Origin: Nanoarchaeota archaeon SCGC AAA011-G17
GTDB lineage: Archaea > Nanobdellota > Nanobdellia > SCGC-AAA011-G17
Direction: 5' to 3'
Length of the DNA stretch: 64,000 nt
NCBI GenBank assembly: GCA_000402515.1
Contig: AQRL01000035.1
Coordinates: 36,006-100,005 of the forward strand
Part shown: piece after piece, positions 24,716 through 58,117 of the stretch
Position numbering within the stretch: the stretch's first letter is position 1
How the letters are laid out: every line of letters starts with the position of its first letter
Notes under the pieces: model-generated
What the model was told of the DNA's origin: nothing
Database searches by the model: none
Seen by the model: the letters and a program-made list of their open reading frames with translations, nothing else
Made by a program: the position numbers and the translations under genes

Positions 24716-26364
24716 ACGAGAACATCAGTTATTTTTTGAAAAGGGGTTTTTTGGTATCTCCTGATTTTTTAGATAAATTGAATTCTATTGATAAATCTGA
24801 ATTTTTTAAATTAATAGAAGAAAAAATAAATAATAAGGAGAATCTTATTTTATTAAACAATGATTTGAGCTCGAATATCTTTAGCGGGAACAAGTTAACT
24901 CTTAACTGGCTGGAATTTGATAATTCAAGAGTACTTTTTGAAAAAAATAAAAATAGTGAATTGTATAAAACTTTTTTGGATATCTTGAGTTATGATTTAG
25001 ATTCAAACAAAAAAGAAGAATTAAATCATTTATTAGAAGAAGTGAAAATAGATGAAAAAAATTTAGGATTAGCAGAAGAAAATGGCGATGAAAACAATGT
25101 TATTATCCTAAAATCTTATAATGATGAGTCTAAAAAGAGGGATATTCAGGATTTTGTTGCCTATTTTAAAAACAGATATGAATTTTTGAAGGAGGTATTA
25201 TCAAACAGAAAAGAATTACAAAATGCGATTTCGATTAAAAGATTGTTAGGCAGAGATAAGAATGAGAAAGGGGCTGTTTCTTTAGTAGGATTAATTTATG
25301 ACAAAAATATTACAAAAAATGGAAATATAATATTAAAATTAGAGGATAAAACAAGCATAATACCCCTAATTATTACTAAAAATAACCCCGAGATTTTTAA
25401 TTTAGCAAATAATCTGGTTTTAGATGAGGTTATAGGTATTAATGGCTTTTGTGGGGATAATGTTGTTTTTGTAAATAGTATTTTTTTCCCGGATGTTCCA
25501 CTAACAAAAGAATTAAAGAAATGTAATGAAGAAGTTTATTGTGTTTTTACTTCCGACTTACATATTGGAAGTAAATTATTTTTAGAAGAGGATTTTAGCA
25601 GGTTTATAGATTGGTTGAATTGTAAGGATTGTAATGATGAAGAAAAGAAGATTGTTGAGAAGATTAATTATCTTTTCATAGTGGGAGACCTTATTGACGG
25701 CATTGGCATCTATCCAGGGCAAGAAGAGGATTTGATTATAAAAGACGTATATAAACAATATGAAAAATTTGTTTATTTTATAACTAAGATTCCAAAAAGA
25801 ATAAAAATAATTATTTGCGGAGGAAATCATGATGCACTAAGAATTTCTGAACCCCAGCCAATATTAGAAAAAAATTATGTTGGGTCCTTATATGAAAAAG
25901 ATAATATTTTTTTTGTTACAAACCCTTCATTAGTGAATATTCAATCTTCAAAGGATTTTTCTGGTTTTGATGTTTTGATGTATCATGGATATAGTTTCCC
26001 TTATTTTGCAGATCTTGTTGATGCTATAAGAATGGAAGGGGGGCAGAAGAGGGCCGATTTAATCATGAAATTTTTATTACAAAGAAGACATCTTGCTCCC
26101 ACACATACTTCAAATTTATACATACCAGATGCCAATCAAGACCCCTTACTTATTGATAAGATTCCTGATTTTTTTATCACAGGGCATATCCATAGAGTAA
26201 ATAGTATCAATTACAGAAATATAACCGGACTGAATTGTGGGTGTTGGGTTAGCCAGAGTGAAGAGCAGAAGAAGAGAGGATTGGTTCCAGACCCATCTAA
26301 GATTTTTTTGGTTAATTTACAAACTAGAGAGGTCAAAATAAGAGATTTTAGTAAAAATGAGTAA
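24712..26364 (+). CDS. DNA polymerase II (PolD) small subunit DP1, calcineurin-like phosphoesterase/exonuclease
   Basis: Metallophosphoesterase motifs 'FTSDLHIGS', 'VGDLIDG', 'CGGNHD', 'GHIH'. Overlaps cdc6 by 4 nt and DP2 by 8 nt. Confidence 0.85.
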   Translation: MNENISYFLKRGFLVSPDFLDKLNSIDKSEFFKLIEEKINNKENLILLNNDLSSNIFSGNKLTLNWLEFDNSRVLFEKNKNSELYKTFLDILSYDLDSNKKEELNHLLEEVKIDEKNLGLAEENGDENNVIILKSYNDESKKRDIQDFVAYFKNRYEFLKEVLSNRKELQNAISIKRLLGRDKNEKGAVSLVGLIYDKNITKNGNIILKLEDKTSIIPLIITKNNPEIFNLANNLVLDEVIGINGFCGDNVVFVNSIFFPDVPLTKELKKCNEEVYCVFTSDLHIGSKLFLEEDFSRFIDWLNCKDCNDEEKKIVEKINYLFIVGDLIDGIGIYPGQEEDLIIKDVYKQYEKFVYFITKIPKRIKIIICGGNHDALRISEPQPILEKNYVGSLYEKDNIFFVTNPSLVNIQSSKDFSGFDVLMYHGYSFPYFADLVDAIRMEGGQKRADLIMKFLLQRRHLAPTHTSNLYIPDANQDPLLIDKIPDFFITGHIHRVNSINYRNITGLNCGCWVSQSEEQKKRGLVPDPSKIFLVNLQTREVKIRDFSKNE

Positions 26365-29300
26365 GGAAGATAGTGAAAAATATTTTGATGAAATAAACAA
26401 AAAGATCAATGTAGCTTATGCTATAGCAAGTGAAGCTAGAAAAGAGGGCTATGACCCTGTTGATTCTGTTGAGATTCCAATTGCAAAGAATATGGCTGAA
26501 AGGGTTGTTGGATTAATAAGTTCTATTGTACCACAAATCAAGGATACTAATATTGTTGAGAGGATTCATGAATTAGAGAAAGAGTATGGAAGTCAAGACT
26601 GGAGAGTTGCTTTGAAAATTGCTGAAGAGGTAACAAAAGAAAAATTTTGTAAATTTAAAGATAAATTGGGAGCAATGGAAGTTGGAATCAGAGTTGGGAT
26701 AGCTTATGTAACTAATGGGGTTGTTGCTAGCCCTTTAGAGGGATTTACCGGAATCAAAATCAGAAAAAGAAGAGATGGAGGAGAATATTTTTCATTGTTT
26801 TTTTCTGGACCCATAAGGAGTGCAGGCGGAACAGGGGCTAGTGTTAGTGTTTTGATTGGCGATTATATCAGGAAAATTATGGGCTATCAGAAATATGATC
26901 CCGATGAGAAAGAAATTAGCCGGTTTGTTATTGAACTCAGAGATTATCATGAAAAAATTACTAATCTACAGTATTTTCCAAGCGAAGAAGAATTAAAATT
27001 TATGGTTGAAAACTTACCTGTGCAGATAGACGGAGATCCTTCTGAAAAATATGATGTCAGTAACTATAAGGGATTGGACAGAATGGACACCAACAAATTA
27101 AGAAATGGCGTCTGTTTGGTTTTGGGAGAAGGATTAACACAGAAAGCCCCAAAATTATGGGCGAAGATAAATACCTGGGGAAAGGAGTTTGGAATGGATG
27201 ACTGGTTTTTCTTAGATAAATTTTTGAAACTACAAAAAAGTATGAAGGCCAAAGAAAAAAAGAGCGATGCAGATTCTAATGTAAAAATAAAACCGGACTA
27301 TACCTACATAAATGATTTAGTTGCTGGAAGACCTGTTTTGGGGCATCCATTGAGAAATGGTGCATTTAGATTAAGATACGGTAGGGCAAGAAATAGCGGA
27401 TTAAGCGGAACTGCAATACATCCAGCTACAATGATTATACTAAATGAGTATATTGCCATTGGAACACAATTAAAGTGGGAGAGACCGGGCAAGGGAACTG
27501 TTGTTAGCTCATGTGATAGTATTGAGGGACCAATTGTAAAACTAAACAACGGATGTGTTTTGTTATTAGAAAATGTAGATGATGCCAGAAAGTATTCAAA
27601 GGACGTTGAGGAAATTATCTTTTTGGGAGATGCTCTGATTTCCTATGGTGATTTCAAGAATAGAGCACATCCTTTAGTTCCTTGCGGGTATAATGAGGAA
27701 TGGTGGAAATTAGAATTTGATAAAGCAATTAAAAACAAAGGGATTATTGAAATTACTCAAGAACTGGATGTTGATAAAGAATTTGTAAAGAATTTGTTTA
27801 AGGAGAGATATGTCAAGGTTAGTTTTGATAATGCACTTAAGATTTCTAAAAAATTGGATATACCCATGCATCCAAGATGGACATATCACTTTAAAAATAT
27901 AAATCAAGAGCAATTTCTTAGTTTAATGGATTGGCTTGAGAATGTGAGTGTTAAAAGAGATGAAAAATTCAAGATTATTTTACCCTTTATTTTTGATACG
28001 GCGAAATTAGTTGAGAAACCGGATCCAAAGAGAGTTTTAGAATTATTAGGAATACCTCATCTTGTTGTAAATAAAGAGTATGTTGTTATAGAAGGAGATG
28101 ATGCAAAAGCCTTTGCCTTTAGCCTTGGATTCTTAGAAAAAAATATTGATGAAGACTTATTAAAATTAATTGGAAAGAATTTGAGAGAAGATATTTTAGA
28201 GTTGATAAATAAGATTTCTGGAATTAAATTCAGGGATAAGAATGGAACGTTTATCGGTGCTAGGATGGGTAGACCAGAAAAAGCAAAGATAAGAAAAATG
28301 ACAGGCAGTCCGCATGTTTTATTTCCGGTTGGAGCAGAGGGGGGGAGATTAAGATGTTTTCAAGAAGCATTAGATAAAAAAAGTGTTACTGCAGACTTTC
28401 CTGTTTATTTGTGTGAAGGCTGCAGCCGAGAAACAATTTATCCCACATGTGAATATTGCCATAAAAAAACCAAGAAAAGATATTATTCTAATAAGACAAA
28501 AATGTTTTTAGATGAACCTCCGGAAAATATTACAAAAAGTAATTTTGGAGAATATCTTCCCCATAGAAAGAAAGCAGTGGATATAAATTATTTCTTTGAT
28601 AGAGCAATGCAAAAATTGAGAATCAGAACATGCCCAGATTTGATTAAGGGGGTAAGGGGAATGAGTAATGAGGAGCACATTCCTGAGAACCTTGCTAAGG
28701 GGATATTAAGAGCATTTCATGATATTCAGGTAAATAAAGATGGAACCATAAGATATGATATGACTGAATTGCCCATAACTCACTTTAAACCTAAGGAAAT
28801 AGGAACAAGTGTTGAGAGATTAAAAGAATTAGGCTATGAAAAAGATATAGAAGGAAAAGATTTAATAAATGACGAGCAAATTTTGGAGCTAAAAGTACAA
28901 GATGTTATTTTACCAAGTTGTGACGGTTCTTTTGAAAGGGGAGCAGATGAGATTTTATTTAGGGTAGGTAATTTTGTTGATGATTTATTAGTCAAATTTT
29001 ATGATATGGACTCATTTTATAATTTTAAAGAAAAGGGAGATTTAGTTGGTCATTTAGTTTTATGTCTGGCTCCACATATTTCTGCAGGGATGATTGGCAG
29101 AATAGTTGGATTTAGCAAGACGCAGGGATTTTATGCACATCCATATTTTCATTGTGCTGTCCGTAGAGATTGTTTTGATTATAATACCTTCATTACAATA
29201 AAAGAGAATGATATTTGGAAAAATTTGAAGATTGGTGATTTAGTAGAAAGATTAAATCCAGAGAAGGTCGTTGATAATTTTAATACAAAAGAGATTAAGG

Positions 29301-31330
29301 TTGAAAACTATAAAACCATTGGTGTTGTAAAAAAATTGAGGGAAGTTAATATTAATAATTTTACAAAACACAGTAGACAAATGATGTATAAACTTAGGAC
29401 CTCCTTAGGTAAGGAGGTGATTGTTACAGAAAATCATAAGTTCATTATTGATGGTAAAATTAAAAGAATGTGTGATTTGAATATTGGGGATAGGTTACCC
29501 TTGGCATATAAAATAAATATAAAATCAAAAGATAAAAGAGAAATTAACTTATTGAAATATCTGAAGGATGAGAATTTAATGGTTAGGGGAATTAGTAATA
29601 TTCTCTCTAAATTAAAACAAGATAAGATTATTAAAATTCTTGATGGATTAGAAATAAGTAAAAAACAGTTTATGAATTTTAGGTTGAGAGATAGTTACCC
29701 CCTTTCTTTTGTTTTGGGGTTGGATAAGAATATTCAAAATGAAATTTTTAATATCGGAAAAATTGCTGCGAAAAGAGATAATATAGAAACTCCAATAAAA
29801 ATAAATTTAGGTGATGATTTACTTGAAGTTATTGGTTTGTATATAGCTGAAGGTTATTCCAGAACAGTTAAGCCAAAGAAAGGTCTAAATCAGGTATATA
29901 TTGCATCAAATGATGTGGATATTAAAAATTTTATCAAGAAGGTTATTAAAAAATATTTTGGATTGATCCCTACAGAAAATAAAAATGATAGAGTTACCTT
30001 TTCTTCAAAAATATTTTATCTGTTCATCTCAAAAATTCTTGGCTGCGGTAATAATGCTAAAAATAAAAGAATACCTAGTCTGTTTTTAGATTTGCCTTGT
30101 GATAGATTGGCTTGTGTTTTGAGGGGATATTATGAAGGGGATGGAAGTGTTTCTTTGAGTGACAGGAGAGTTAGTTGTGATAGTGTAAGTGATGGTCTAC
30201 TTTATGATTTGGAATTTTGTTTAGGTCGATTTGGAATTTTTGTTAAGAGATATAAATATAAAAAACAGCCAGGTCCAAAGGTTAGACAGTTTTATATTAA
30301 CAAAAAAAGAGACATCCCTGAATTTGAGATAACTAAATTAATCATTGGTTCAAACTTTGTTGATAATTTTATGAAGATTGGATTTTTATCTGAAAGGAAA
30401 AAACGTATTTTAAGATTTCATAAAGATAAAAAATATTTGGGCATGAGGATTGATTATGATGAGAATTTTGTTTATGATCCTGTAATTTTAATAGATTATG
30501 TTGGTGAAAAAGAGAGTTACTGTTTAAATATTGATTCTGATAATCATTTAGTTTTAGCAAATTCAATTATTAGTAAACAATGCGATGGCGATGAGGCCGC
30601 GGTTATGCTGCTGATGGATGCTTTACTAAACTTTTCAAGGAAATATTTACCCGGGCATAGAGGTGCAAAGCAGGATGCCCCCTTGGTTCTAACCTCTTGC
30701 TTAATCCCCGGAGAGGTAGATGATATGGTTTTTGATATGGATATTGTCAATAGTTATGGTCTAGAATTTTATGAGGCTACCCAGGAATATAAACTTCCGG
30801 GAGATATAAAATTAGAGCTTATTAAAAATAGATTAGGAAAAGATGAACAGTATTTTAATTTTGGATTTACCCATGATACTACAGATATTAATCTGGGTGT
30901 TACAATAAGTGCTTACAAAAAGCTACCAACAATGATGGAAAAGGTTTTTGGACAGATGGATATTGCTGAAAAAATAAGGGCTGTTGATGAGGATGATGTT
31001 GCTAGATTAATTATTGAAAGGCATTTTATGAGAGATATTAAGGGTAATTTAAGAAAATTCAGCCAGCAGGAATTTAGGTGTGTTGCATGTAATGAGAAAT
31101 TCAGAAGACCTCCATTAACAGGCGTTTGTCTGAAATGTGGCGGAAAAATAATATTTACCATTGCTGAAGGAGGGATTACCAAATATATGGAGCCTGCTTT
31201 AAGCTTGGCTGAAAAATATGACCTGCCTGCTTATCTTAGGCAGGATTTGGAGCTGACACAGAAGAGAATTGAAAGTGTGTTTAGCAAAGACAAGGAGAAA
31301 CAGGAAGGATTGGGGAAGTGGTTTGGTTAG
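26357..31330 (+). CDS. DNA polymerase II (PolD) large subunit DP2, containing one 470-aa LAGLIDADG intein
   Basis: Extein is about 1187 aa. The catalytic motif is split: 'HPYFHCAVRRD' | intein | 'CDGDEAAVMLLMD'. C-terminal Zn finger 'CVACNEKF...CLKCGG'. Confidence 0.85.
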   Translation: MSKEDSEKYFDEINKKINVAYAIASEARKEGYDPVDSVEIPIAKNMAERVVGLISSIVPQIKDTNIVERIHELEKEYGSQDWRVALKIAEEVTKEKFCKFKDKLGAMEVGIRVGIAYVTNGVVASPLEGFTGIKIRKRRDGGEYFSLFFSGPIRSAGGTGASVSVLIGDYIRKIMGYQKYDPDEKEISRFVIELRDYHEKITNLQYFPSEEELKFMVENLPVQIDGDPSEKYDVSNYKGLDRMDTNKLRNGVCLVLGEGLTQKAPKLWAKINTWGKEFGMDDWFFLDKFLKLQKSMKAKEKKSDADSNVKIKPDYTYINDLVAGRPVLGHPLRNGAFRLRYGRARNSGLSGTAIHPATMIILNEYIAIGTQLKWERPGKGTVVSSCDSIEGPIVKLNNGCVLLLENVDDARKYSKDVEEIIFLGDALISYGDFKNRAHPLVPCGYNEEWWKLEFDKAIKNKGIIEITQELDVDKEFVKNLFKERYVKVSFDNALKISKKLDIPMHPRWTYHFKNINQEQFLSLMDWLENVSVKRDEKFKIILPFIFDTAKLVEKPDPKRVLELLGIPHLVVNKEYVVIEGDDAKAFAFSLGFLEKNIDEDLLKLIGKNLREDILELINKISGIKFRDKNGTFIGARMGRPEKAKIRKMTGSPHVLFPVGAEGGRLRCFQEALDKKSVTADFPVYLCEGCSRETIYPTCEYCHKKTKKRYYSNKTKMFLDEPPENITKSNFGEYLPHRKKAVDINYFFDRAMQKLRIRTCPDLIKGVRGMSNEEHIPENLAKGILRAFHDIQVNKDGTIRYDMTELPITHFKPKEIGTSVERLKELGYEKDIEGKDLINDEQILELKVQDVILPSCDGSFERGADEILFRVGNFVDDLLVKFYDMDSFYNFKEKGDLVGHLVLCLAPHISAGMIGRIVGFSKTQGFYAHPYFHCAVRRDCFDYNTFITIKENDIWKNLKIGDLVERLNPEKVVDNFNTKEIKVENYKTIGVVKKLREVNINNFTKHSRQMMYKLRTSLGKEVIVTENHKFIIDGKIKRMCDLNIGDRLPLAYKINIKSKDKREINLLKYLKDENLMVRGISNILSKLKQDKIIKILDGLEISKKQFMNFRLRDSYPLSFVLGLDKNIQNEIFNIGKIAAKRDNIETPIKINLGDDLLEVIGLYIAEGYSRTVKPKKGLNQVYIASNDVDIKNFIKKVIKKYFGLIPTENKNDRVTFSSKIFYLFISKILGCGNNAKNKRIPSLFLDLPCDRLACVLRGYYEGDGSVSLSDRRVSCDSVSDGLLYDLEFCLGRFGIFVKRYKYKKQPGPKVRQFYINKKRDIPEFEITKLIIGSNFVDNFMKIGFLSERKKRILRFHKDKKYLGMRIDYDENFVYDPVILIDYVGEKESYCLNIDSDNHLVLANSIISKQCDGDEAAVMLLMDALLNFSRKYLPGHRGAKQDAPLVLTSCLIPGEVDDMVFDMDIVNSYGLEFYEATQEYKLPGDIKLELIKNRLGKDEQYFNFGFTHDTTDINLGVTISAYKKLPTMMEKVFGQMDIAEKIRAVDEDDVARLIIERHFMRDIKGNLRKFSQQEFRCVACNEKFRRPPLTGVCLKCGGKIIFTIAEGGITKYMEPALSLAEKYDLPAYLRQDLELTQKRIESVFSKDKEKQEGLGKWFG
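29171..30580 (+). other. Intein in DP2 (Hint domain + LAGLIDADG homing endonuclease), Cys1 ... C-terminal Gln
   Basis: Starts 'CFDYNTFITIKENDIW'. LAGLIDADG motifs 'LLEVIGLYIAEGYS' and 'CVLRGYYEGDGSVS'. Ends 'YCLNIDSDNHLVLANSIISKQ' immediately before extein 'CDGDE'. Length is an exact multiple of 3 (1410 nt). Confidence 0.8.
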
Positions 31331-33374: not shown

Positions 33375-34691
33375 TTATATTTTTTCTAATATATTTTTGG
33401 TATACAGTCCTTTATCTGTTAATTCGTAGATTCCTCTCCTTATTTTTTGTACTGTCCCTTCATTTATTCTTTTTTTAACCCAGTTATAACATATTTTTTT
33501 AGGCATTAATTCTCTTATATGGTTTCCACAAAATATTGGATTGAGATTTTTGAAATGTTTTTGAGATTTATACCACCTATGATTTTTTAAATTCCATATT
33601 AGTTTTTGATGTTGTTTTTTGGAATCTTTTATTAAATCTGTTTCTATTAACTTTAATAATTTATCCCAGTTTAAGTAAATATTCAAAATGTATAGATTTT
33701 TATTTCCTTCTTTTCTGATTTTTCCATTTAATTCTAATTTTTCCAATAATCTTTTGTAATCTTCTATGTATTGTCTTTCTCTTTCAAAAAATCTAAGAAA
33801 GGAATGCAAACTTCCATGTTTGTCTTTAGCACAAGCAAAGTTTCCATCCCCATTGAATAGGCCCCTTAGAAATAATTTAGTTAATTTTTCACTTTCTTTA
33901 TCACAATTTTCTGATAAATAGTTTCTTGTTTTGTCCACCATATTAATAAATATATCTGTTAAGATACTACTACTTATCCATAATTTAATGCTGTAATTCC
34001 TAATTCTTTTAGCTTTGTTTATATAGAGATTTTCTTCTCTTATACCATATTTAATTAGTTTTTCTTTAACTTTTTCAATTCTATCTTTACTGAGTTTTTT
34101 ATTATAATAAATTGTTGTTTTTATTATTTTTATGTCTATAAGGTATTTTAACAGACCTATAAAATCTTTTATTATTTTTAACGAAGTATTAACAAAAGAA
34201 AATTCTCTTGCTCGTCTTTTAGCTAATTTGGGCTTTCCTCCTTCTGCTTGATAATATCCTAAACATTTTGCAAACTTGGAAGGCATATTTTTATTGATTA
34301 TTACTTCTTTAGAACCTCCATAATTCAGATACCAACATAATAATTTGTTTTTCTTTTCTAAAACTAAAATAGGATATCCTGATAATGTTTTTTCTGGAAT
34401 GAATGCTAAACTATTAAACTTGTTATTTTTGATTATCTCTTTTTCTCTTTTTATATTTTTTATTTCTTTTATATTAATTGTAATTATATCTTTAGGTTCT
34501 AAGTTTAGTTTCTTCCTTATATCCCTTGGTATGAAAAATCTTCTTTCTTTGTTAAGGTATTTTATAAATGAGAGTGATTTATTATTTTTTTGTATTTCTA
34601 CTTCAAAAAATTTATCTTTAAATTTATGATATTCTTCTTTGTGTAAATAGATTCTTCCATCTTTTAATATAGTCTCTTGTTCTGTTGACAT
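33375..34691 (-). CDS. Free-standing LAGLIDADG-family endonuclease-like protein with N-terminal AbrB-like and C-terminal wHTH regions
   Basis: 'CLGYYQAEGG' and 'FLRGLFNGDGNF' LAGLIDADG motifs. C-terminal 'IRRGIYELTDKGLY'. Confidence 0.45.
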   Translation of the reverse strand: MSTEQETILKDGRIYLHKEEYHKFKDKFFEVEIQKNNKSLSFIKYLNKERRFFIPRDIRKKLNLEPKDIITINIKEIKNIKREKEIIKNNKFNSLAFIPEKTLSGYPILVLEKKNKLLCWYLNYGGSKEVIINKNMPSKFAKCLGYYQAEGGKPKLAKRRAREFSFVNTSLKIIKDFIGLLKYLIDIKIIKTTIYYNKKLSKDRIEKVKEKLIKYGIREENLYINKAKRIRNYSIKLWISSSILTDIFINMVDKTRNYLSENCDKESEKLTKLFLRGLFNGDGNFACAKDKHGSLHSFLRFFERERQYIEDYKRLLEKLELNGKIRKEGNKNLYILNIYLNWDKLLKLIETDLIKDSKKQHQKLIWNLKNHRWYKSQKHFKNLNPIFCGNHIRELMPKKICYNWVKKRINEGTVQKIRRGIYELTDKGLYTKNILEKI

Positions 34692-48385: not shown

Positions 48386-51300
48386 ATGGAAAAAGAGGAA
48401 ATAACTCCTGGCGGATATCAGATTATCAAACAAGGCAAAGAAGATGTTCTAAAAATAAATATGGAAAATGTGAGCTATCCTCCTTCTTTAGAAAATAGTT
48501 CCTTGTGTATGATGCAGACTATTTCCAAGCTTGCTCAGGTTCCAGGTGTTGGAAGGATTATTTTTTCTGACGGCAGAAATTATGAATATAACTATGAGCA
48601 GACACAAATACTTGTTGAGATTGCCGGAATTTATAACCATTTAATTAAACAAAAAAATACCTTAACCTTTGGGTTGGATGAAGGGGATAGCACAAGAAGA
48701 GAGATTATACAGAGCTTAATAATTAATTTATTGAGAAGTGACCCCATTGGATGTTATGTTGAATTAAAGAGGATTATCAGAGAAGAAAGAATAAGGGTGA
48801 GGGGGTTAACAAACGATACAGAGATAAGATTAACACAAATGTATGTTTCTTTATTGGATTATATTCTTGGGCTGCTTGACCGAACAAAGTTAGTACAAAG
48901 AGTCAGAGAGTCTTTAGACGGGCATATTGTTGGTGACAGGCTTGTGTATAAAAGAATTTTCAGCCCAATTATAACTCCTGACTTTATGTATACCAAATTA
49001 ATGTCCAGAATTCCTCTTAATGGCGAATTGGTGGATAGTTATAAAATTGACAGGGATACAGAGGTAAATATTTTTAGGATGCCGGGGCAAATAAAAAATC
49101 TGTATCATTTGAATCCTCCGGAATTTAAATTTGATGATGACAAGTTTGAGTTAATTCATTTAGCAAGAACTGTTTTAGCAGAGCATAAACCAAGAGAAGA
49201 GGAGTTTATTGATCCTGAAAGAATGAGAACTACTTTTTTTAATATCGGAAGGGATATGCTGCAGGAACTTGCAGACAGAAAGGGACTGAGGTTAAATTAT
49301 GCTGAGTTAAAGCAATTAACAAATGTTCTTGTCAGATATACTGTTGGATTTGGTTTGGTTGAAACTTTATTGAAAGATCAAAAAGTACAGGATATTACTA
49401 TAAATGGACCGATGGGCCAGACACCGATTTTTATAGTTCATGAGAATTTTGATGAGTGTGTTACCAATATTGTTCCATCTAGGGAGGATGCTTTAAGCTG
49501 GGCAACTAAATTCAGAATTTTAAGTGGCAGACCATTGGATGAGGCTAATCCTGTTTTGGATACTGAGCTTGTAATTCCAGAGGCAAGAGCAAGAGTTGCA
49601 ATTGTTTCTACTCCCTTAAGCCCATGGGGACTAGCTTATGCATTTAGAAGGCACAGAGACAAGCCGTGGACACTGCCTTTATTTGTTAATAACAAAATGA
49701 TTACACCTATGGCTGCAGGGCTATTGAGTTTTTTAATTGATGGTGCTAGGACATTAATTGTTGCTGGAACAAGAAGCTCGGGTAAGACTTCTTTATTGGG
49801 AGCAGGTTTGGTTGAAATTATGAGGAAATACAGAATATTAACTACTGAGGATACTTTAGAGCTGCCAACAGATGCACTTAGAAATCTTGGATATAATATA
49901 CAACCGATGAAAGTAAGAAGTGCTTTATCAAAAGGAGGAACAGAGGTTGCTGCTGATGAGGGAATCAGAACTGCATTAAGAATGGGAGATAGTGCATTAA
50001 TTGTAGGAGAAATTAGAAGTTCTATTAGAGGAAGTGAAAAAGTAGTTGTTGTAGATAATGGGGAAACAAAAAGAATTCCAATTGCAGACTTAGAAGGGAA
50101 AGATATAGAGAAAATGTATGTTCCTACTATAGATTTTGACTTACAGGTTAAATTGTCCAAGCTTAATGGGTTTGTTAAACATCCCAAAAGAAAAAAATTA
50201 TTAAAAGTCAAAACAAGAACTGGAAGAGAGGTTACTGTTACACCCGACCATAGTTTATTTACTTCTCATAATTTTAAAATATATCCAATAGAATGTAAGG
50301 ATTTGAAAGTTGGAAGTAAGATTGTTTTACCTTCTAAATTGCCTTGCGGGTATAATGATATAGGTCATTTAAATCTTTTAAATATTATTGGGGATGCTAG
50401 AGTTGAGAATTTTGAAGAACCGATTAGGCGGGTTATATCTAAAATAGGATGGAAGAAAGCCACTTCTCTTTGCAATATAAAATGTGGAGATATCTATAAT
50501 TATTATAGAGTAAATCAAAAGACCAATATCCCTATAAATTCTTTTAATAAATTAGTATCCCTTGCAGAAGAGAATAATAATCTAGAAAGTTTGTATATAA
50601 AGAATGGAACAAGTAATACTTTAAGTGCTTTATTCCCTATAAATGTAGATTTTTGTAGATTTTTAGGTTATTTTATTTCTGAAGGGTATTTCCATGATAC
50701 TTCTATTGTGATATCAAATGATAATGATAAAATAGTCTCAGATATTACTTCTTTATGTAAAACTCTCTTTAATCTTGAACCATATGTTAGAGAAACAAAA
50801 GGATTGGGGAGGTCTAAACAGATAGCGATCAGTAATTCTCCATTGGTAAAATTATTTGAAAAGATTGGATGCGGAAGAATTAGTAAAGAAAAAAGAATTC
50901 CTTCATTTATCTATGGTTTATCTGAATCTAAGATATACTCATTTTTAAGTGGATTATATGCTGGTGATGGAAGTTTCACATCATCAAAGTCTTCTGGTAA
51001 TTGTATTAGATATTTTACTATTTCAAAAGAACTTGCAGATGATTTGATGTATTTATTATTACATATAGGCATTGTTTCAAGAAAATTAATGAGGAAGAGC
51101 AATGGCTTATCAAACAATCCTATTTATATTGTTGAGTTTAAGGATAGGAATTTTGTAAGAAGATTTATAGATAATGTTGATTTTGTTAAATATAAACCAG
51201 TGATGACTGAAAAAAATGTTTCACACTCTCGTTTTAATAATGTAAGTTATGATATAAAAGAACTTGAGAACCATTTGAAATTAATTAGAAAATATAGGCA

Positions 51301-52150
51301 TTTGAGAAAATATAATTCATGCGGAAAAGAGTTTCTTAGAAAGATAGTTTTAGATAAAAATACTAATTCCGATTCTTCAATAAAAACATTTGTGAATGGT
51401 GAATTTTATTTAGACGAAGTCAAAGAAATAGAAGAAATAAATTTAGAGGAAGGAGAGTATGTTTATGATTTGTCTGTTGATCCAAGCCAGAATTTTATTG
51501 GGGGATTTGGAGGAATTTTATTACATAATACAGAAGCTTTAGCACTTTATGAGGCTATGAGAATTGGTGCATTGGCTAATGTTGTTGCCGGAACAATTCA
51601 TGGTGATAGTCCGTATGGTGTTTTTGACAGGGTTGTAAATGATTTGAAAGTTCCTAAGACTTCTTTCAAAGCCACAGATATAATTATTGTTGCTAATCCT
51701 ATAAAAAGTGCAGATGGATTACATAAATGGAGGAGGGTTACACAGATTACTGAGGTAAGAAAGAATTGGCAAGATGATCCATTAAGGGAGGGAGGATTTG
51801 TTGACTTAATGAAATATGACAGCAAAGAAGACAGATTAAAACCAACTGATGATCTGATTAATGGGAATAGCGAAATAATAAAAGGAATTGCTGCAAATGT
51901 AAAGGAGTGGGCTGGTGATTGGGATGCTGTTTGGAATAATATAGTATTAAGAGCAAAAATAAAAGAGGCTATAGTTAATTATTCAAGAGTTTTCAAAAAA
52001 CCAGAAATGTTAGAGGCTGAATTTGTTATCAAGGCTAATGATATGTTTCATATTACAAGCGGGAGTGTTCAGGAGAGAGAGGGGTGGCTGAATTCTGAAT
52101 TGATTTATACTGAATGGGAAGACTGGCTGAAAAAAGAAATTAATGGTTAG
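48386..52150 (+). CDS. Type IV pilus/archaellum-type assembly ATPase (GspE/VirB11/FlaI superfamily) containing a ~503-aa LAGLIDADG intein
   Basis: 'DITINGP', Walker A 'GTRSSGKTS', 'LIVGEIRS'|intein|'TEALALYEAMRIG', 'GTIHGDS'. About 470-aa N-terminal extension before Walker A. Confidence 0.8.
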   Translation: MEKEEITPGGYQIIKQGKEDVLKINMENVSYPPSLENSSLCMMQTISKLAQVPGVGRIIFSDGRNYEYNYEQTQILVEIAGIYNHLIKQKNTLTFGLDEGDSTRREIIQSLIINLLRSDPIGCYVELKRIIREERIRVRGLTNDTEIRLTQMYVSLLDYILGLLDRTKLVQRVRESLDGHIVGDRLVYKRIFSPIITPDFMYTKLMSRIPLNGELVDSYKIDRDTEVNIFRMPGQIKNLYHLNPPEFKFDDDKFELIHLARTVLAEHKPREEEFIDPERMRTTFFNIGRDMLQELADRKGLRLNYAELKQLTNVLVRYTVGFGLVETLLKDQKVQDITINGPMGQTPIFIVHENFDECVTNIVPSREDALSWATKFRILSGRPLDEANPVLDTELVIPEARARVAIVSTPLSPWGLAYAFRRHRDKPWTLPLFVNNKMITPMAAGLLSFLIDGARTLIVAGTRSSGKTSLLGAGLVEIMRKYRILTTEDTLELPTDALRNLGYNIQPMKVRSALSKGGTEVAADEGIRTALRMGDSALIVGEIRSSIRGSEKVVVVDNGETKRIPIADLEGKDIEKMYVPTIDFDLQVKLSKLNGFVKHPKRKKLLKVKTRTGREVTVTPDHSLFTSHNFKIYPIECKDLKVGSKIVLPSKLPCGYNDIGHLNLLNIIGDARVENFEEPIRRVISKIGWKKATSLCNIKCGDIYNYYRVNQKTNIPINSFNKLVSLAEENNNLESLYIKNGTSNTLSALFPINVDFCRFLGYFISEGYFHDTSIVISNDNDKIVSDITSLCKTLFNLEPYVRETKGLGRSKQIAISNSPLVKLFEKIGCGRISKEKRIPSFIYGLSESKIYSFLSGLYAGDGSFTSSKSSGNCIRYFTISKELADDLMYLLLHIGIVSRKLMRKSNGLSNNPIYIVEFKDRNFVRRFIDNVDFVKYKPVMTEKNVSHSRFNNVSYDIKELENHLKLIRKYRHLRKYNSCGKEFLRKIVLDKNTNSDSSIKTFVNGEFYLDEVKEIEEINLEEGEYVYDLSVDPSQNFIGGFGGILLHNTEALALYEAMRIGALANVVAGTIHGDSPYGVFDRVVNDLKVPKTSFKATDIIIVANPIKSADGLHKWRRVTQITEVRKNWQDDPLREGGFVDLMKYDSKEDRLKPTDDLINGNSEIIKGIAANVKEWAGDWDAVWNNIVLRAKIKEAIVNYSRVFKKPEMLEAEFVIKANDMFHITSGSVQEREGWLNSELIYTEWEDWLKKEING
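50021..51529 (+). other. Intein in pilus ATPase (Hint + LAGLIDADG endonuclease)
   Basis: Block A 'SIRGSEKVVVVDNGETKRIPIADL'. Block B 'VTPDHSLF'. LAGLIDADG 'FLGYFISEGY' and 'FLSGLYAGDGSF'. Blocks F/G 'YVYDLSVDPSQNFIGGFGGILLHN|T'. The N-terminal boundary is uncertain by about 4 codons. Confidence 0.75.
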
Positions 52151-52181: not shown

Positions 52182-54335
52182 ATGAGTAAAAAAGAGGTAG
52201 AGGATATTCTAGAGAAATACAGGAAGAAACTAAAAGAAGAGGTTAGTCCAGATCTTAACCAGGGTGCATTTTCCAGAGAATATTCAAAATTTAAAACTGA
52301 GGTAATTGGGAAAGAACTTACATTATATGAAAAACTTTGTAATTTATCTGAGAGAATATTAAGAATAGGAACAAGTTCTGAAAAAAGACAAAAATTAGAG
52401 GAGAGCATTTATCATACTGAATTAAATATCAGCCCTGAAGGGGCTATGAGTTTTGCCACCTTATTTGGTTTTTTTCTTATTATTTTGTCCTTTGTAATTG
52501 GCGGGATATGGTATTTATTTAGTGGCTTAACTGCTGGAGTATCTTTTTCTGTTATACTAATAATTCTTATTGGACTAGTCAGTATGAGAGTTTTAGCTGA
52601 AGTTCCAAACAGAAAGGCAATGATGTGGAGGATAAAGGCCAGTGACCAGATGGTTTTGTGCATTCTGTATATTGTTATGTACATGAGACATACTTCTAAT
52701 CTAGAGCATGCTATTAAATTTGCAGCGCAGCATCTTGATGATCCATTATCTGCTGATTTGAAAAAAGTTTTCTGGAATTTGGAAACAGGGAAGGCCAAGA
52801 CGGTTAGTGAGAGCCTTGATATTTATTTAGAGGGATGGAGAAAATATAATATGGAATTTATCAATTCTGTCCATCTTATTGAGAGCTCATTATATGAGCC
52901 AACTGAGAAGAGAAGATTAGAGATTTTGGACAGAGCATTGGAGGTTATTTTAAACGGAACTTATGAAAGGATGATGAACTATGCGCATGATATAAAAAAT
53001 CCAATCACTACTTTGTATATGCTTGGTGTAATACTTCCGATACTGGCATTGATTATTCTTCCTCTGATGGGGGCATTTTTGGGAGTGAAGTGGTACTGGC
53101 TTGCATTCCTATATAATATATTACTTCCATTATTTGTTTATTTCAAGGGAAATGATATTTTGAATAAGAGACCGGGTGGAAGCAGTGAGAGTACTTTATT
53201 GCAGGGAAAGGATTATGAAGATTATAAGAGAATAGAATTTTTGGGAATACAGATGGATCCTTTAGTTCTTGGCTTGCCTATTTTATTTTTGGTTTTAATA
53301 GTTGGATTAAGCCCCTTGATATTACACTCTTTATTTCCTGCAAGCCTTTTCTTGAATGCTGAAGGTGTTTTTGGTTATTTTAGTGATAATGGGCTTTGTA
53401 CTGGAAAGAATTGTATGGGTCCTTATGGAATCTTGGCACTTTATCTGAGTTTGTTGATTCCTCTTAGCTGGACTTTGGGAATTGGATTGTATTACAGATT
53501 AAAGACGAGAAAATTAATAAAAATAAAGGATGATACTACAAGATTAGAAAAAGAATTTTCAAGCAGTTTATTCCAATTAGGAAACAGAATTGGAGATGGA
53601 TTACCGGCTGAGATTGCAGTTGAGAAAGTGGCTGAGAATATGAGGGGAACTGCAACTGGTGATTTCTTCAGGATGATTGCAATCAATATCAGAAATTTAG
53701 GGATGGATCTGAATGAGGCTATTTTTAATAAATCAAGAGGGGGAATTATTTACTATCCTTCAAATGTTATCCAGAGCTCGATGAGAGTACTTGTTCAGAG
53801 TGTTCAGAAAGGCCCTGCAATAGCTGCCAGTGCAATGATCAGCATTTCTAATTATTTGGATAATATAAATAAAATAAATGAGAGACTTAAAGATTTATTG
53901 TCTGATATTACCAGCAGTATGAAGGGGCAGATAAATTTTCTAACTCCTCTTATTGCCGGAATTGTTATTGGTATTGGGGCTATGATAACAAGCATTATTG
54001 TCAAGCTTGGTCCATTATTAGCAATGACTGGGGGAGATAAGGTTGAGGGATTTGGTGTTGACCTGAGCATTATTGCAGACATCTTTCCGCTTGACAAGGT
54101 AATTCCCCCATATTTCTTCCAGTTGGTTGTTGGGATTTATATTTTACAACTTGTTATTATTTTAACTAAACTAAAAAGTGGGATTGAATTTGGTGTTGAC
54201 AGATTAAGAGAGGAGAATGAAATGGGTGGAAATTTATTTAAGGGAGTGGGGCTTTATGTTATTGTATGCATAGTTGTTGTATTCATATTAACTATGCTAT
54301 CGGAAGGAGTAATGTTAACAACAGGTGGACTATGA
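52182..54335 (+). CDS. Polytopic membrane platform protein (FlaJ/TadC/GspF-like)
   Basis: 717 aa. Two blocks of TM helices separated by cytoplasmic domains. Immediately downstream of the ATPase. Confidence 0.6.
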   Translation: MSKKEVEDILEKYRKKLKEEVSPDLNQGAFSREYSKFKTEVIGKELTLYEKLCNLSERILRIGTSSEKRQKLEESIYHTELNISPEGAMSFATLFGFFLIILSFVIGGIWYLFSGLTAGVSFSVILIILIGLVSMRVLAEVPNRKAMMWRIKASDQMVLCILYIVMYMRHTSNLEHAIKFAAQHLDDPLSADLKKVFWNLETGKAKTVSESLDIYLEGWRKYNMEFINSVHLIESSLYEPTEKRRLEILDRALEVILNGTYERMMNYAHDIKNPITTLYMLGVILPILALIILPLMGAFLGVKWYWLAFLYNILLPLFVYFKGNDILNKRPGGSSESTLLQGKDYEDYKRIEFLGIQMDPLVLGLPILFLVLIVGLSPLILHSLFPASLFLNAEGVFGYFSDNGLCTGKNCMGPYGILALYLSLLIPLSWTLGIGLYYRLKTRKLIKIKDDTTRLEKEFSSSLFQLGNRIGDGLPAEIAVEKVAENMRGTATGDFFRMIAINIRNLGMDLNEAIFNKSRGGIIYYPSNVIQSSMRVLVQSVQKGPAIAASAMISISNYLDNINKINERLKDLLSDITSSMKGQINFLTPLIAGIVIGIGAMITSIIVKLGPLLAMTGGDKVEGFGVDLSIIADIFPLDKVIPPYFFQLVVGIYILQLVIILTKLKSGIEFGVDRLREENEMGGNLFKGVGLYVIVCIVVVFILTMLSEGVMLTTGGL

Positions 54336-54439
54336 ACAAAAAAGGTATTGCTGATAAAACTATGATTGTAATTGGTATTTTAATACTCGCTGTTATTTTG
54401 ATTTTAATCTTGAGGGGGATTATTAACAATGTATTCTAA
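54332..54439 (+). CDS. 35-aa prepilin-like micro-protein (class III signal peptide + TM only)
   Basis: 'MNKKGIADKTMIVIGILILAVILILILRG'. ATG overlaps the TGA of the previous gene (ATGA). Confidence 0.4.
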   Translation: MNKKGIADKTMIVIGILILAVILILILRGIINNVF

Positions 54440-55187
54440 AAAAGGAATCGCTAAGCTTACAGTTTTTCTTATTGTTGGTTTACTAGGAGCGATTGCTCTT
54501 TTTTCTGTTTGGGGAGGTATTTTTCCAGCTTCTAGAGATATTGTTATGCATAAGGTGTGCACTTGGAGTATAAACTTTAAAGACAAGCTCATTATAGGAA
54601 CTAATTTGTGTTATACTGATGACAAGGAAGTAAGTGAAAAAGATAAGGAAGCTGTAATGAAAGATATTGCAGACAAGATGGTTGAATGCTGGAAGAGAAT
54701 GGATGAGGGAAGAACTCCAATTGATACAAATTGGTTTGTTGGGGGATATAAATGCTTTAAGTGTTATAGAATAAAAATTACAGGACTAAAAGATAAAATT
54801 AGTTATGAAGATTTTTTTAAATTTTTAACTGAAAATCCTATTAAGGGAAAGGAAGAAAGCTATAATACTTTCTTTAAGAAATATGATGAGGATAATGCGA
54901 TTGTTCTTCTTGGAAAAAGTGGCACTATTAAAGAGGCGTTTATTGATCCAAAACAATATGAATATTATACTGTGGCTTTTAAGGGCTATACTCCTGCTGG
55001 GAAGGGAAGTGTTGCTGCTACAGCATATAGCTCTGTAAAATTAGCCCCATTTACTGGAGGATGGTCTCTTCTAGCAGGTGCCACAGCCCTGACTACTGGA
55101 GGTGTTCGTTACTGGATTAGTGAAAACTCAATAATTGTTGCATCTTATGATAAATTGGAGGAAGAGTGTTCATCAACTTTAAGATGA
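54429..55187 (+). CDS. Prepilin-like protein (class III signal peptide)
   Basis: 'MYSKKG|IAKLTVFLIVGLLGAIALFSVW' followed by a 220-aa domain. Confidence 0.55.
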   Translation: MYSKKGIAKLTVFLIVGLLGAIALFSVWGGIFPASRDIVMHKVCTWSINFKDKLIIGTNLCYTDDKEVSEKDKEAVMKDIADKMVECWKRMDEGRTPIDTNWFVGGYKCFKCYRIKITGLKDKISYEDFFKFLTENPIKGKEESYNTFFKKYDEDNAIVLLGKSGTIKEAFIDPKQYEYYTVAFKGYTPAGKGSVAATAYSSVKLAPFTGGWSLLAGATALTTGGVRYWISENSIIVASYDKLEEECSSTLR

Positions 55188-55327
55188 AAAAGGGACAGAC
55201 AGTTATGGATACAACAAGAGAGTTAATTTGGGTATTATTAATACTGCTCGCTTTGGTTTTTTTTGTTTATTTTTTGAAGGATAAAATAACTCATTTCTTT
55301 GAGGTGATGTTTGATGCTCTCAAATAG
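55184..55327 (+). CDS. 47-aa prepilin-like micro-protein
   Basis: 'MKKGQTVMDTTRELIWVLLILLALVFFVYFL'. ATGA overlap with the upstream gene. Confidence 0.4.
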   Translation: MKKGQTVMDTTRELIWVLLILLALVFFVYFLKDKITHFFEVMFDALK

Positions 55328-55985
55328 GAAGGGGAATGAAGGAATGTGGTGGACAATTGCTGGTGCAGGGATTGCACTCATTATTTTAATTATCTTAATT
55401 TTTGCTTTTCTTTCTGAAGGAGGTATTTGGGGAAAAACAAAAGTAGCTATTACTAAATTTTTTGAAAAGGGTGAAGAGGGGATTAAGCTATATAAGGAAT
55501 ATTTTGGAGATAATCCCAGCAAACAGGTAATAAAGGCAGGGCTAATAAAAGATTTTATTATAACTAATCTTAGCCGGATTGAGAATAAGGACTGCATAGG
55601 TTATCTTGATTTGTCTGGCATAAATGAAGATATTGATGGCTATTCTGTTTATTTTAAGAAAACAGATGAGGGAACTGATTTTTATGTGTATAGTGGGGGG
55701 AAGAAAGATTATGGTGAGATATTAAAAGACCATCTTGCTTATGGTCATGTCAGTACTAATCTATTTGGGTATAATCCTGTCTTTAAAGAAGAATATAGTG
55801 AATTTTGGCTTCTTAATGGGATGACAAGTATCATTTTTCCAGTTGGTGTAAGCTATCCACTTTTATATTCCTCTTCAAAAGCTAATAATCCTTATTACTT
55901 AAATTACAAAGACAAGAGATTGCGTTTTGTTGTATTACCTGATGAACTTTCCAAAATAAATAATCCAAGTATAAATAAATGTTAG
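55314..55985 (+). CDS. Prepilin-like protein
   Basis: 'MLSNRKGNEGMWWTIAGAGIALIILIILIFAFL'. Confidence 0.5.
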   Translation: MLSNRKGNEGMWWTIAGAGIALIILIILIFAFLSEGGIWGKTKVAITKFFEKGEEGIKLYKEYFGDNPSKQVIKAGLIKDFIITNLSRIENKDCIGYLDLSGINEDIDGYSVYFKKTDEGTDFYVYSGGKKDYGEILKDHLAYGHVSTNLFGYNPVFKEEYSEFWLLNGMTSIIFPVGVSYPLLYSSSKANNPYYLNYKDKRLRFVVLPDELSKINNPSINKC

Positions 55986-56044
55986 ACGAAACATTTAAAT
56001 AGAAAATAAAAGAATTTATATATAAGTATATATTGAGAGGTGTT

Positions 56045-56497
56045 ATGAAAATGAATAAAAGAGGTCAAGGTGGACTTTCTATGGATACTATTATTATAGC
56101 TGTAATTGCTATAATTGTTTTGTTATTGATTGTTACTTTCTTTACAGGCGGAATGGCTAATGTTTTCGGCAAGATAAGGAATGTATTCTCGACTGGGACA
56201 GCAGGAACAGATATTGATCTTGCAAAGAAAAGCTGTGAAAGTTATTGTGAAAGAGCACAGGGATTAGCAACAGAAGGTGAAAGAAAGGTATCAACTTATT
56301 GCACTTATGAATTTAAAATAGATACAGATAGTAGTGGGAAAGTTGATAAGGCTGATGGGGATGGATGTACTAAAAATAGAAGAGATAGTAATGGTAATTC
56401 TGTAACTGCAAAATCTGATTGTTCTGTTGGGGTTGTTTATTGTGATAAATCTCCAATTGTAATCAGTTGTCCAGGAGTAACTTGTGCTACAGTTTAG
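56045..56497 (+). CDS. Cys-rich prepilin-like protein (candidate major pilin)
   Basis: 'MKMNKRGQGGLSMDTIIIAVIAIIVLLLIVTFF', then a 110-aa domain with 12 Cys. Confidence 0.55.
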   Translation: MKMNKRGQGGLSMDTIIIAVIAIIVLLLIVTFFTGGMANVFGKIRNVFSTGTAGTDIDLAKKSCESYCERAQGLATEGERKVSTYCTYEFKIDTDSSGKVDKADGDGCTKNRRDSNGNSVTAKSDCSVGVVYCDKSPIVISCPGVTCATV

Positions 56498-56520
56498 TAA
56501 TTTTTTTTCTTTTTATTAAA

Positions 56521-56748
56521 ATGAACAAAAAAGGGGATTTGAACTGGGAAGTAATTGTTACTGGTATTATAGTTGTAATTGTTTTGGTTGTTCTTGTAAT
56601 ATTTTTCAGACAGCAGATAATGGATGTTGCTAAGGGTTTTAAAAGTATTGTTGAAGGGGGAACAGCTGGTGTTGATGAGATAGATGTCAATAAAATGGCT
56701 GGAGAGGGAAGCAAGACATTTAGCAGAAATTTTATATATACCTCCTGA
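56521..56748 (+). CDS. Prepilin-like protein (75 aa)
   Basis: 'MNKKGDLNWEVIVTGIIVVIVLVVLVIFF'. Confidence 0.5.
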   Translation: MNKKGDLNWEVIVTGIIVVIVLVVLVIFFRQQIMDVAKGFKSIVEGGTAGVDEIDVNKMAGEGSKTFSRNFIYTS

Positions 56749-56760
56749 TTAGCTATTGTT

Positions 56761-57321
56761 ATGTTAAATAAAAAAGGGGATGAAACAGTATGGCAATATA
56801 CCATTGGCTTATTTATTATGTTTTTTGTTCTTTTTGGTTTGACCAGCTGTGGTTATAAAATACTCAATCCTAATTGCGATCCTGCTTCTGTTGAGGCTTT
56901 TAATGAATTTGTTAAATATTATGAAGAATGTACCGGCAAGAATGGAGACTGTGGGAAGTTTAATTATTCCAAGTTGGACAAGCTGGATAATATAGTTGTT
57001 GAGCCAACAGGCAATAAATTAGAGAGTACAAGCATTAATCTGAGATGCAATGGAAAAACTTCATTCAGAAACAGCAGAAAAATTGATGTTAAATTATGCT
57101 TTAAATACGGAGAAAATGTCAGATTAGCAAATAGCGGTGATTCTGTGAATATTTATCCTGATGAAGGGAATGATCTTGAATATTTTTTAAATAATAATTT
57201 GAACTTATACAACATAAATCAGGATAATGTTTGTTTTGTTATGATTGGGAAAACTATGGAAGAATATACTAAGGAAGAAGCAAGAAAACAATTTATGGAT
57301 AAAGATTATATGTCTAAGTAA
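56761..57321 (+). CDS. Prepilin-like protein with Cys-containing domain
   Basis: 'MLNKKGDETVWQYTIGLFIMFFVLFGL'. Confidence 0.5.
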   Translation: MLNKKGDETVWQYTIGLFIMFFVLFGLTSCGYKILNPNCDPASVEAFNEFVKYYEECTGKNGDCGKFNYSKLDKLDNIVVEPTGNKLESTSINLRCNGKTSFRNSRKIDVKLCFKYGENVRLANSGDSVNIYPDEGNDLEYFLNNNLNLYNINQDNVCFVMIGKTMEEYTKEEARKQFMDKDYMSK

Positions 57322-57326
57322 GTGGA

Positions 57327-57713
57327 TTGATTAAAATGAATAAAAAAGGCCAGGATTTACCGACTGTAACAACTGTTGAACTTTTTATTTTATTATTAAT
57401 ATTTGGAATGCTTGCTTATGTAACTTTTAATGCAAATATCAGCAATGATGTCAATAATATAAGGGCAAAGGATTTGGGATTGGCAATAAGCCTAATCAGC
57501 TCTTTTGACAAGAATGTTAAATTCAGCTATAATCTTGAGGATGAAAAAAAAATTAATTTTATAGATAATAATGTTGAAATTTCCAATAAAGACGGAAGCC
57601 ATTTTGAGAAAAGCAAATTTAATCTTAATAAAAAAAATACATTTAACGGGAAAGACGGCAATTATCAATCATTAAGCATAAAAAAATCAGGAGATAGTGT
57701 TGAGGCAAAATGA
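57327..57713 (+). CDS. Prepilin-like protein
   Basis: 'MIKMNKKGQDLPTVTTVELFILLLIFGML'. Confidence 0.5.
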   Translation: MIKMNKKGQDLPTVTTVELFILLLIFGMLAYVTFNANISNDVNNIRAKDLGLAISLISSFDKNVKFSYNLEDEKKINFIDNNVEISNKDGSHFEKSKFNLNKKNTFNGKDGNYQSLSIKKSGDSVEAK

Positions 57714-58117
57714 ATAAAAAAGGCGGGGGAGAGATATTATCAGGAAAAACAGGGTATTATATTGTTTATATTTTTATTTTTGCAATAAGCATTGCTATTG
57801 CTGCAGCTTATATTAATAATAAAGTTACAGTGAATGTTGATTTTTCTGTACTGGAAAGGGATGTTGTCAGCAGCATGGTTTTTGACTGTTTGAAGGGCAG
57901 TGAATTTGGAATTATTGATTATAACAAATTCAAGAGTGAAAATCTGAAAGAGTGCTTTGATGAAAATACATATTATGTCAAGGTCAAATTGAGAGAGAGC
58001 GGAGAGATAAGGAATTTTGATTTCAGCAGTGATAATCGTGTTGAATATTATGTTCTTGTTGACAAGGGAGAATTACAAAGAGATTTTTTATCTCTGGAGT
58101 TTGAAAATGTTGCCTGA
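57710..58117 (+). CDS. Prepilin-like protein
   Basis: 'MNKKGGGEILSGKTGYYIVYIFIFAISIAIAAAY'. ATGA overlap. Confidence 0.5.
   Translation: MNKKGGGEILSGKTGYYIVYIFIFAISIAIAAAYINNKVTVNVDFSVLERDVVSSMVFDCLKGSEFGIIDYNKFKSENLKECFDENTYYVKVKLRESGEIRNFDFSSDNRVEYYVLVDKGELQRDFLSLEFENVA

Follow-up and report, generated by a model that had tools for sequence, protein, structure and literature searches.

A probable homing intein beside the Walker B motif of a type IV filament-type ATPase from a DPANN archaeon

The locus described here raises the question of what the 503 residues are that split the catalytic core of a filament-type ATPase, and whether they belong to that enzyme or to an element lodged within it. 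The locus lies in a 64,000-nucleotide (nt) stretch of contig AQRL01000035.1 from Nanoarchaeota archaeon SCGC AAA011-G17, hereafter the window, the sequence of which recurs without change within contig AQYW01000081.1 (assembly GCA_000380905.1). The closest homologs of the host protein carry the source labels Woesearchaeota, Nanoarchaeota or Nanoarchaeia, and the source is therefore taken to be a DPANN archaeon. An initial annotation had proposed an intein of about 503 amino acids (aa) at 50021-51529, inside a 1254-aa open reading frame (ORF); that span proved exact, and every motif quoted was located at the place given for it. The insert is interpreted as a full-length class 1 intein with a two-motif LAGLIDADG homing endonuclease, inserted in frame after Walker B (GEIRS^TEA, the caret marking the insertion point here and below) of a DPANN type IV filament ATPase, with a probability of about 0.93. 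The features of the precursor gene are as follows.

48386..52150, + strand: precursor ORF, 1254 aa, an intein-interrupted T2SSE/FlaI/CpaF-type secretion-superfamily ATPase
48386..50020, + strand: N-extein, aa 1-545
about aa 1-290 of the N-extein: DPANN-specific N-terminal region
49763-49792, + strand: Walker A, AGTRSSGKTS, in the N-extein
49841-49867, + strand: Asp box, TTEDTLELP, in the N-extein
49994-50020, + strand: Walker B, ALIVGEIRS, at the end of the N-extein
50021..51529, + strand: intein, 503 aa (aa 546-1048 of the ORF), class 1 (Ser1 ... His-Asn, then Thr+1)
50021-50062, + strand: block A, SIRGSEKVVVVDNG, in which Ser1 is the first nucleophile
50240-50260, + strand: block B, TPDHSLF, with Thr74 and His77
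50660-50689, + strand: first LAGLIDADG motif, FLGYFISEGY, with catalytic Glu221
50942-50977, + strand: second LAGLIDADG motif, FLSGLYAGDGSF, with catalytic Asp316
51458-51529, + strand: blocks F and G, YVYDLSVDPSQNFIGGFGGILLHN, with Asp483, His502 and Asn503
51530..52150, + strand: C-extein, 206 aa plus stop, its first residue being Thr+1
51530-51532, + strand: Thr+1 codon
51587-51610, + strand: His-box region, AGTIHGDS, in the C-extein

The identity of the insert was established by protein family models and by structure, both of which matched the intein blocks A, B, F and G and the two LAGLIDADG motifs named in the initial annotation. The Pfam model Intein_splicing matched intein residues 11-503 (E=1.3e-23, 84 bits, cutoff 35.8), LAGLIDADG_3 matched two stretches of the insert (E=2e-19), and the NCBIfam models intein_Nterm (42.1 bits, cutoff 24.5) and intein_Cterm (22.1 bits, cutoff 15.6) were also exceeded. 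The remaining strong NCBIfam matches were to models of intein-bearing RpoA'', Tes, DnaB, RFC, DP2, VMA, GyrA, ribonucleotide reductase (RNR) and RecA, which are unrelated hosts and must therefore have been matched through their intein part only. A sequence search against solved structures gave PI-PkoII as the best match (1.4e-20), together with VMA inteins and TFIIB mini-inteins. An AlphaFold model of the intein, built on 17 inteins from the same insertion site, had a mean predicted local distance difference test score (pLDDT) of 88.3 and a predicted template modelling score (pTM) of 0.89, and its top Foldseek matches were all intein endonucleases (2cw7, 8.5e-30; 7qss, 1.2e-25; 1dq3, 3.7e-21; then PI-SceI). 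Further down were free-standing LAGLIDADG enzymes and mini-inteins, each on its respective half of the model; the endonuclease part matches I-DmoI and I-Tsp061I, and PI-PkoII and PI-PfuI match over the whole length. Both LAGLIDADG helices, each closed by an acidic catalytic residue, are present, as is the alpha-beta-beta-alpha-beta-beta-alpha fold of monomeric enzymes with two such motifs.

The junctions read SALIVGEIRS^SIRGSEKVVVVD...GGFGGILLHN^TEALALYEAMRI, or in shorter form LIVGEIRS^SIRGSEK...GGILLHN^TEALALYEAM, with the C-terminal residues placed as ...YVYD483LSV...GGILLH502N503^T. When the insert is removed computationally the joined extein is 751 aa long, the length that had been predicted for the spliced product, and it matches the Pfam T2SSE model (PF00437) with 53.3 bits (cutoff 24.9), all four ATPase motifs being located. 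Coverage of that profile grows from positions 84-222 in the precursor to 84-273 in the spliced extein, that is, across the junction, which the NCBIfam FlaI (aa 290-695) and TadA matches also span. With phmmer, the spliced extein matched Archaeoglobus fulgidus GspE (2OAP, 2.4e-26), CpaF (2.5e-22) and FlaI (7.5e-16), and the junction is free of gaps against 2OAP ('livgeirstealalyeam' on 'iivgevrgreaqtlfqam') and against CpaF and FlaI, bearing out the clean extein alignment on which the intein assignment had been made to depend. GEIRS-TEA falls on GEVRGREA and GEVRGPEA of the homologous ATPases, and the intein is therefore placed one residue past Walker B, beside the catalytic glutamate. The host ATPase did not reach the cutoff of the FlaI equivalog model (NCBIfam NF058587; 130 bits against 550), and no archaellin or FlaH-type genes were identified near it; judged from its sequence it would work like FlaI, GspE and CpaF, and it should not be filed as FlaI.

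Residue conservation was scored in an alignment of the 17 same-site inteins, which have 45-75 % overall identity and are all full length (494-528 aa). Ser1 is kept in all nine aligned copies that extend to the N-terminus and the block B Thr and His (Thr74, His77) in 14 of 14, while Asp483, His502 and Asn503, as well as the endonuclease residues Glu221 and Asp316, are invariant in 17 of 17; the +1 residue is Thr in 15 copies and Ser in one. The GC content of the intein is 28.1 %, compared with 36.0 % for the exteins and 31.6 % for the whole window, and the same offset between intein and exteins recurs in two of the same-site loci from other genomes (L004 and L005).

From these residues a conventional course of splicing can be proposed. 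The gene would be translated into a 1254-aa precursor, presumably inactive since its ATPase core is split by 503 residues. Ser1 would undergo an N-O acyl shift aided by Thr74 and His77 of block B, Thr+1 would attack the resulting ester to give a branched intermediate, and cyclisation of Asn503, assisted by His502, would release the intein. A final O-N shift would join the exteins as a 751-aa ATPase (...LIVGEIRS-TEALALYEAM...). The LAGLIDADG domain of the freed intein (Glu221, Asp316) would then cut intein-free alleles near the insertion point, and a cut allele would gain a copy of the intein through recombinational repair. Homing of this kind would be expected to lead to a patchy distribution of the intein that is incongruent with its hosts.

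Such a distribution was found. The three closest orthologs are 84 % identical, 751 aa long and free of the intein, and among the 120 nearest orthologs 112 are intein-free, two carry an intein at the Walker-B site and six carry one at the Asp box (ED^TLELP); an ortholog of 82 % identity (P0004) bears the Asp-box intein instead of the Walker-B one. One intein-free locus (L001) is fully syntenic with the window, having the upstream small genes, two divergent genes, the ATPase, the membrane protein (720 versus 717 aa) and ORFs of 35 and 250 aa. With nt 50021-51529 (1509 nt) left out, the window ORF and the L001 ORF are colinear, both of 2256 nt, with 77.6 % nucleotide identity overall and 79-87 % local identity near the junction, where the empty allele reads ...GGAGAGATTAGAAGC^ACTGAGGCT..., also given as ...ATTGTAGGAGAGATTAGAAGC^ACTGAGGCTAGTGCTTTG.... 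The insert as a family-specific domain of the ATPase, the reading that the initial annotation had set against its own, is ruled out by this in-frame presence/absence polymorphism: 112 of 120 orthologs do without it and the closest is colinear once the 1509 nt are subtracted.

Inteins at the Walker-B site, in the identical insertion codon and with 45-75 % full-length identity, were found in proteins P0062, P0073 and P0121-P0137 and in loci L004-L007, with the source labels Woese-, Micr-, Aenigm- and Nanoarchaeota. The copies in other DPANN archaea are, by their sequence, alleles of the same intein; like that of the window they have Ser1 and the junction GGFGG(I/V)LLHN^TEA, whereas some of their hosts, unlike the window's, harbour an additional intein, either at the Asp box or at Walker A. 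Related same-site alleles in public metagenome proteins bear automatic 'intein/homing endonuclease' annotations. The window intein is 73-75 % identical to the same-site copies in three Woesearchaeota from Rifle groundwater, and the exteins of the two that were compared (L004 and L005, with inteins 74-75 % identical) are only 62-66 % identical to those of the window. Absence from the closest hosts, combined with this incongruent pattern in which the inteins are more alike than their hosts, is what would be expected of a homing element subject to gain and loss. In several intein-bearing ATPase gene calls from other DPANN lineages, all on long contigs (P0121, P0122, P0129 and P0145), the ORF starts at an internal Met with 'M(L)EI(L/M)RKYRI...' and has an N-extein of only about 71 aa, for which a split gene, a frameshift or an artefact of gene calling could account.

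Several points weigh against this interpretation. The case for splicing and homing is built from conserved residues, and Thr is a less common +1 nucleophile than Cys or Ser. The greater similarity of intein than of extein could partly reflect unequal substitution rates. In the intein-free alleles among P0001-P0120 the residue at +1 varies (Leu 28, Thr 27, Lys 26, Val 7, Gln 7, others), although in intein-bearing alleles at the Walker-B site it is always Thr or Ser; many of the empty alleles could therefore not splice after invasion, unless their flanks were co-converted. Lastly, the designation of the host as a pilus assembly ATPase draws on homology and gene context, with the FlaI cutoff missed and the neighbouring genes matching no curated model.

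The alternative that survives best, although it is unlikely, is an intein that still splices and has a dead or decaying endonuclease, so that it is inherited only vertically on its way to a mini-intein or to loss. It would fit the rarity of the Walker-B intein (two of the 120 close orthologs) and the closest relatives having lost it or never had it. However, both LAGLIDADG catalytic residues and the glycines around them are invariant in the 17 copies despite identities of 45-75 %, a pattern indicative of purifying selection acting on the endonuclease, the copies are all of 494-528 aa with no mini-intein seen at this site among them, and the identity between inteins (74-75 %) exceeds that between hosts (62-66 %).

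Still less probable is a conditional-splicing switch, in which redox state, metal, temperature or a nucleotide would gate activation of the pilus ATPase. The position beside the catalytic Walker B glutamate guarantees an inactive precursor, inteins have entered no fewer than four catalytic motifs of the same ATPase family, and documented cases of conditional splicing exist for the inteins of RadA, DnaB and other ATPase motifs (work cited in PMC4760082 and PMC7360933). On the other hand, the sequence indicates no sensor, redox control through a pair of catalytic cysteines is not available with Ser1 and Thr+1 as nucleophiles, 93 % of the closest orthologs function with no intein at all, and insertion at a conserved motif is equally well explained by conservation of the homing endonuclease target. 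The earlier statement that the intein ties filament assembly to protein splicing holds only in the trivial sense that an intact ATPase needs splicing; nothing points to splicing that is regulated. A non-splicing Hint/LAGLIDADG domain that inactivates the gene, or an assembly artefact, is scarcely credible even for a single-cell or metagenome-style assembly (GCA_000380905.1), as the frame is open over 3765 nt with all splicing residues intact and the same-codon insertion is met again in assemblies made independently from other sites and phyla, a recurrence that effectively refutes this reading.

The wider family of this intein was surveyed by a full-library search with its sequence, which gave 5161 relatives at E ≤ 0.001, and the best 150 of the 5161 were classified by host; T2SSE-type ATPases were the hosts of 46 of these 150. 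Four breakpoints were recognized in the ATPase, which in the extein numbering of the window lie in Walker A at about 468 (GK(S)^T), in the Asp box at about 491, at 546, the Walker-B site of the window intein, and at about 555 (QGMA^(S/T)GHP), the last of which immediately precedes the His box and occurs in more distant paralogs. The pre-His-box inteins, 'LFQGMA^S...HN^(S/T)GHP..T(I/M)HA', lie about 10 residues downstream of the window site in T2SSE/FlaI-like ATPases with extein identities of 22-32 % (P0139, P0177, P0180, P0181, P0184, P0191, P0198 and P0224). Inteins at Walker A, at the Walker-B site and before the His box have the common end NF(I/V)GGFGG(I/V)LLHN, and those at the latter two sites also have the common start S(I/L)(R/K/P)G.E, the Walker-A copies starting with (V/I)P.(D/E)E. 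These shared terminal sequences suggest that one lineage has moved between sites or paralogs.

The inteins at the Asp box (P0004, P0027, P0053, P0091, P0094 and P0095; equivalent to 49850/49853 of the window, ED^T) begin with Ser1 in SVTGDSE..., end in (I/V)(I/V/L)AHN, are followed by Thr+1, and are structurally different from the lineage at the other three sites. Among the 120 closest orthologs the Asp-box site is occupied three times more frequently than the Walker-B site. Alleles with two inteins, at the Asp box and Walker B, are found in P0164-P0166 (1772-1783 aa), and an Aenigmatarchaeota locus (L007:1-5568, JACPZZ010000034.1) has an ORF of at least 1855 aa with inteins at Walker A and Walker B, the former being 746 aa long with Cys1 (GSGK^CLSGD...VSN^TSLLN). 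It can be proposed tentatively, as an idea less likely than not, that one intein lineage has moved repeatedly among the catalytic motifs of archaeal T2SSE-type ATPases. The Walker-B site is unusual among these in having a +1 residue that empty alleles do not conserve, with Leu, Lys and Thr about equally common, and homing there would need the Thr codon to be supplied by co-conversion or would be restricted to Thr alleles. If true, these genes would be a natural system for the study of ectopic intein transposition and of allele 'immunity'.

Among inteins of solved structure, that of the window is like PI-PkoII (Thermococcus kodakarensis Pol-2, 2CW7), PI-PfuI (1DQ3), TliVMA (7QSS) and PI-SceI (1VDE) in having a HINT splicing domain into which a DNA-recognition region and a LAGLIDADG endonuclease with two motifs are set, and shares with them the presumed mechanism of splicing and homing. 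Template modelling (TM) scores normalised to the query were 0.57-0.70 for 2CW7, 7QSS and 1DQ3 and 0.41-0.45 for PI-SceI. When aligned by structure, however, they share only 12-19 % sequence identity with it, the hosts of these inteins differ (DNA polymerase, RNR, vacuolar-type ATPase), and their nucleophiles are Cys or Ser combinations in contrast to Ser1 and Thr+1.

Another intein of solved structure is that of Methanocaldococcus jannaschii KlbA (MJ0781), a weak sequence match (E=2e-4). A protein-database search with the KlbA intein itself gave a single weak match. Its host is presumably a VirB11/TrbB/T2SSE-type ATPase, as the weak match and the end of the N-extein in 2JMZ would fit; that end, GHDG (GHDG^ALAYDEP), corresponds to NTGHDG of CpaF. 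The KlbA intein (2JMZ/2JNQ) and that of the window both have the HINT fold and both lie inside the catalytic core, but the KlbA site belongs to the His-box region, which by motif alignment puts it about 17 residues downstream, and KlbA is a 168-aa mini-intein with no endonuclease in contrast to 503 aa with one. It is also a class 2 intein with Ala1 and Cys+1 that splices without the N-terminal acyl shift (PMC7765530). A KlbA-type intein was ruled out for the window insert, which has Ser1 and Thr+1, is of class 1 and is sited after Walker B.

Whether the host protein and site had been catalogued was left unsettled by the initial annotation. The host superfamily does appear among the catalogued carriers of inteins: Table 3 of Novikova 2016 (PMC4760082) gives 21 inteins in archaeal VirB11 (COG0630) and five in CpaF (COG4962), the VirB11 hosts being Crenarchaeota, Euryarchaeota and 'Other Archaea'. 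The same paper describes the clustering of inteins in P-loop ATPase motifs, Walker B included. The window intein falls in the same host category and follows the same clustering rule. A literature search found no paper on this particular intein or insertion site. Elements of this kind are well known, inteins had been recorded in the host family before, and the present one is an ordinary case; the only mildly novel angle lies in the invasion of DPANN filament ATPases by several inteins at several sites, together with the non-conserved +1 position.

The genes downstream of the ATPase give the context in which its function would be understood.

52182..54335, + strand: polytopic membrane protein, 717 aa, directly downstream of the ATPase and present at the intein-free ortholog locus
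54332..58117, + strand: small ORFs with MNKKG/MNKRGQ and a hydrophobic helix, read from the sequence

The membrane protein probably serves the filament system as its platform protein, although Pfam and NCBIfam scans of it gave no T2SSF/FlaJ or other significant family. At least seven pilin-like ORFs (starts at 54332, 54429, 56033, 56467, 56761, 57327 and 57710) resemble prepilins that bear class III signal peptides; no curated family was reached in Pfam and NCBIfam scans of them, and at the ortholog locus there was a single weak Flp1_like match. It is this run of pilin-like ORFs that suggests a type IV pilus-like locus.

Other intein-like elements were observed elsewhere in the window. The ORF for DP2, the large subunit of DNA polymerase II (26357..31330, + strand, 1657 aa), has Intein_splicing and LAGLIDADG_3 matches at about aa 955-1405 and contains a second intein, 25 % identical to that of the ATPase. 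A 437-aa ORF at 33375..34691 (- strand) has the LAGLIDADG-like motifs LGYYQAEGG and LRGLFNGDGNF (Pfam LAGLIDADG_3, 4e-10), and neither a Hint domain nor host-protein similarity was found in it; it may be a free-standing homing endonuclease. The ORF for LonB protease (20355..21710, - strand) matches the LonB model from profile position 195 onward (aa 37-441), and its first 39 residues weakly match an intein-containing IF-2 model. The upstream ORF (21753..22730) may hold the N-terminal ATPase part of LonB, separated from the rest by another intein or by a split of the gene; inteins are known from LonB (PMC4760082).

For annotation, the gene at 48386..52150 is best described as an intein-containing T2SSE/FlaI-like ATPase with a mature product of 751 aa, and the label of a multidomain protein of 1254 aa should be avoided. 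The intein contributes a documented insertion site, after Walker B and with Ser1 and Thr+1, to a family whose well-studied member, KlbA, sits and splices differently. None of the findings calls for anything beyond a selfish mobile element lodged in a conserved site. DPANN archaea rely on surface filaments for contact with their hosts, and obligatory splicing of a filament ATPase could in principle matter physiologically. As a Ser1/Thr+1 intein, probably from a mesophilic source and with many natural variants, the element could also modestly extend the protein-engineering toolbox.

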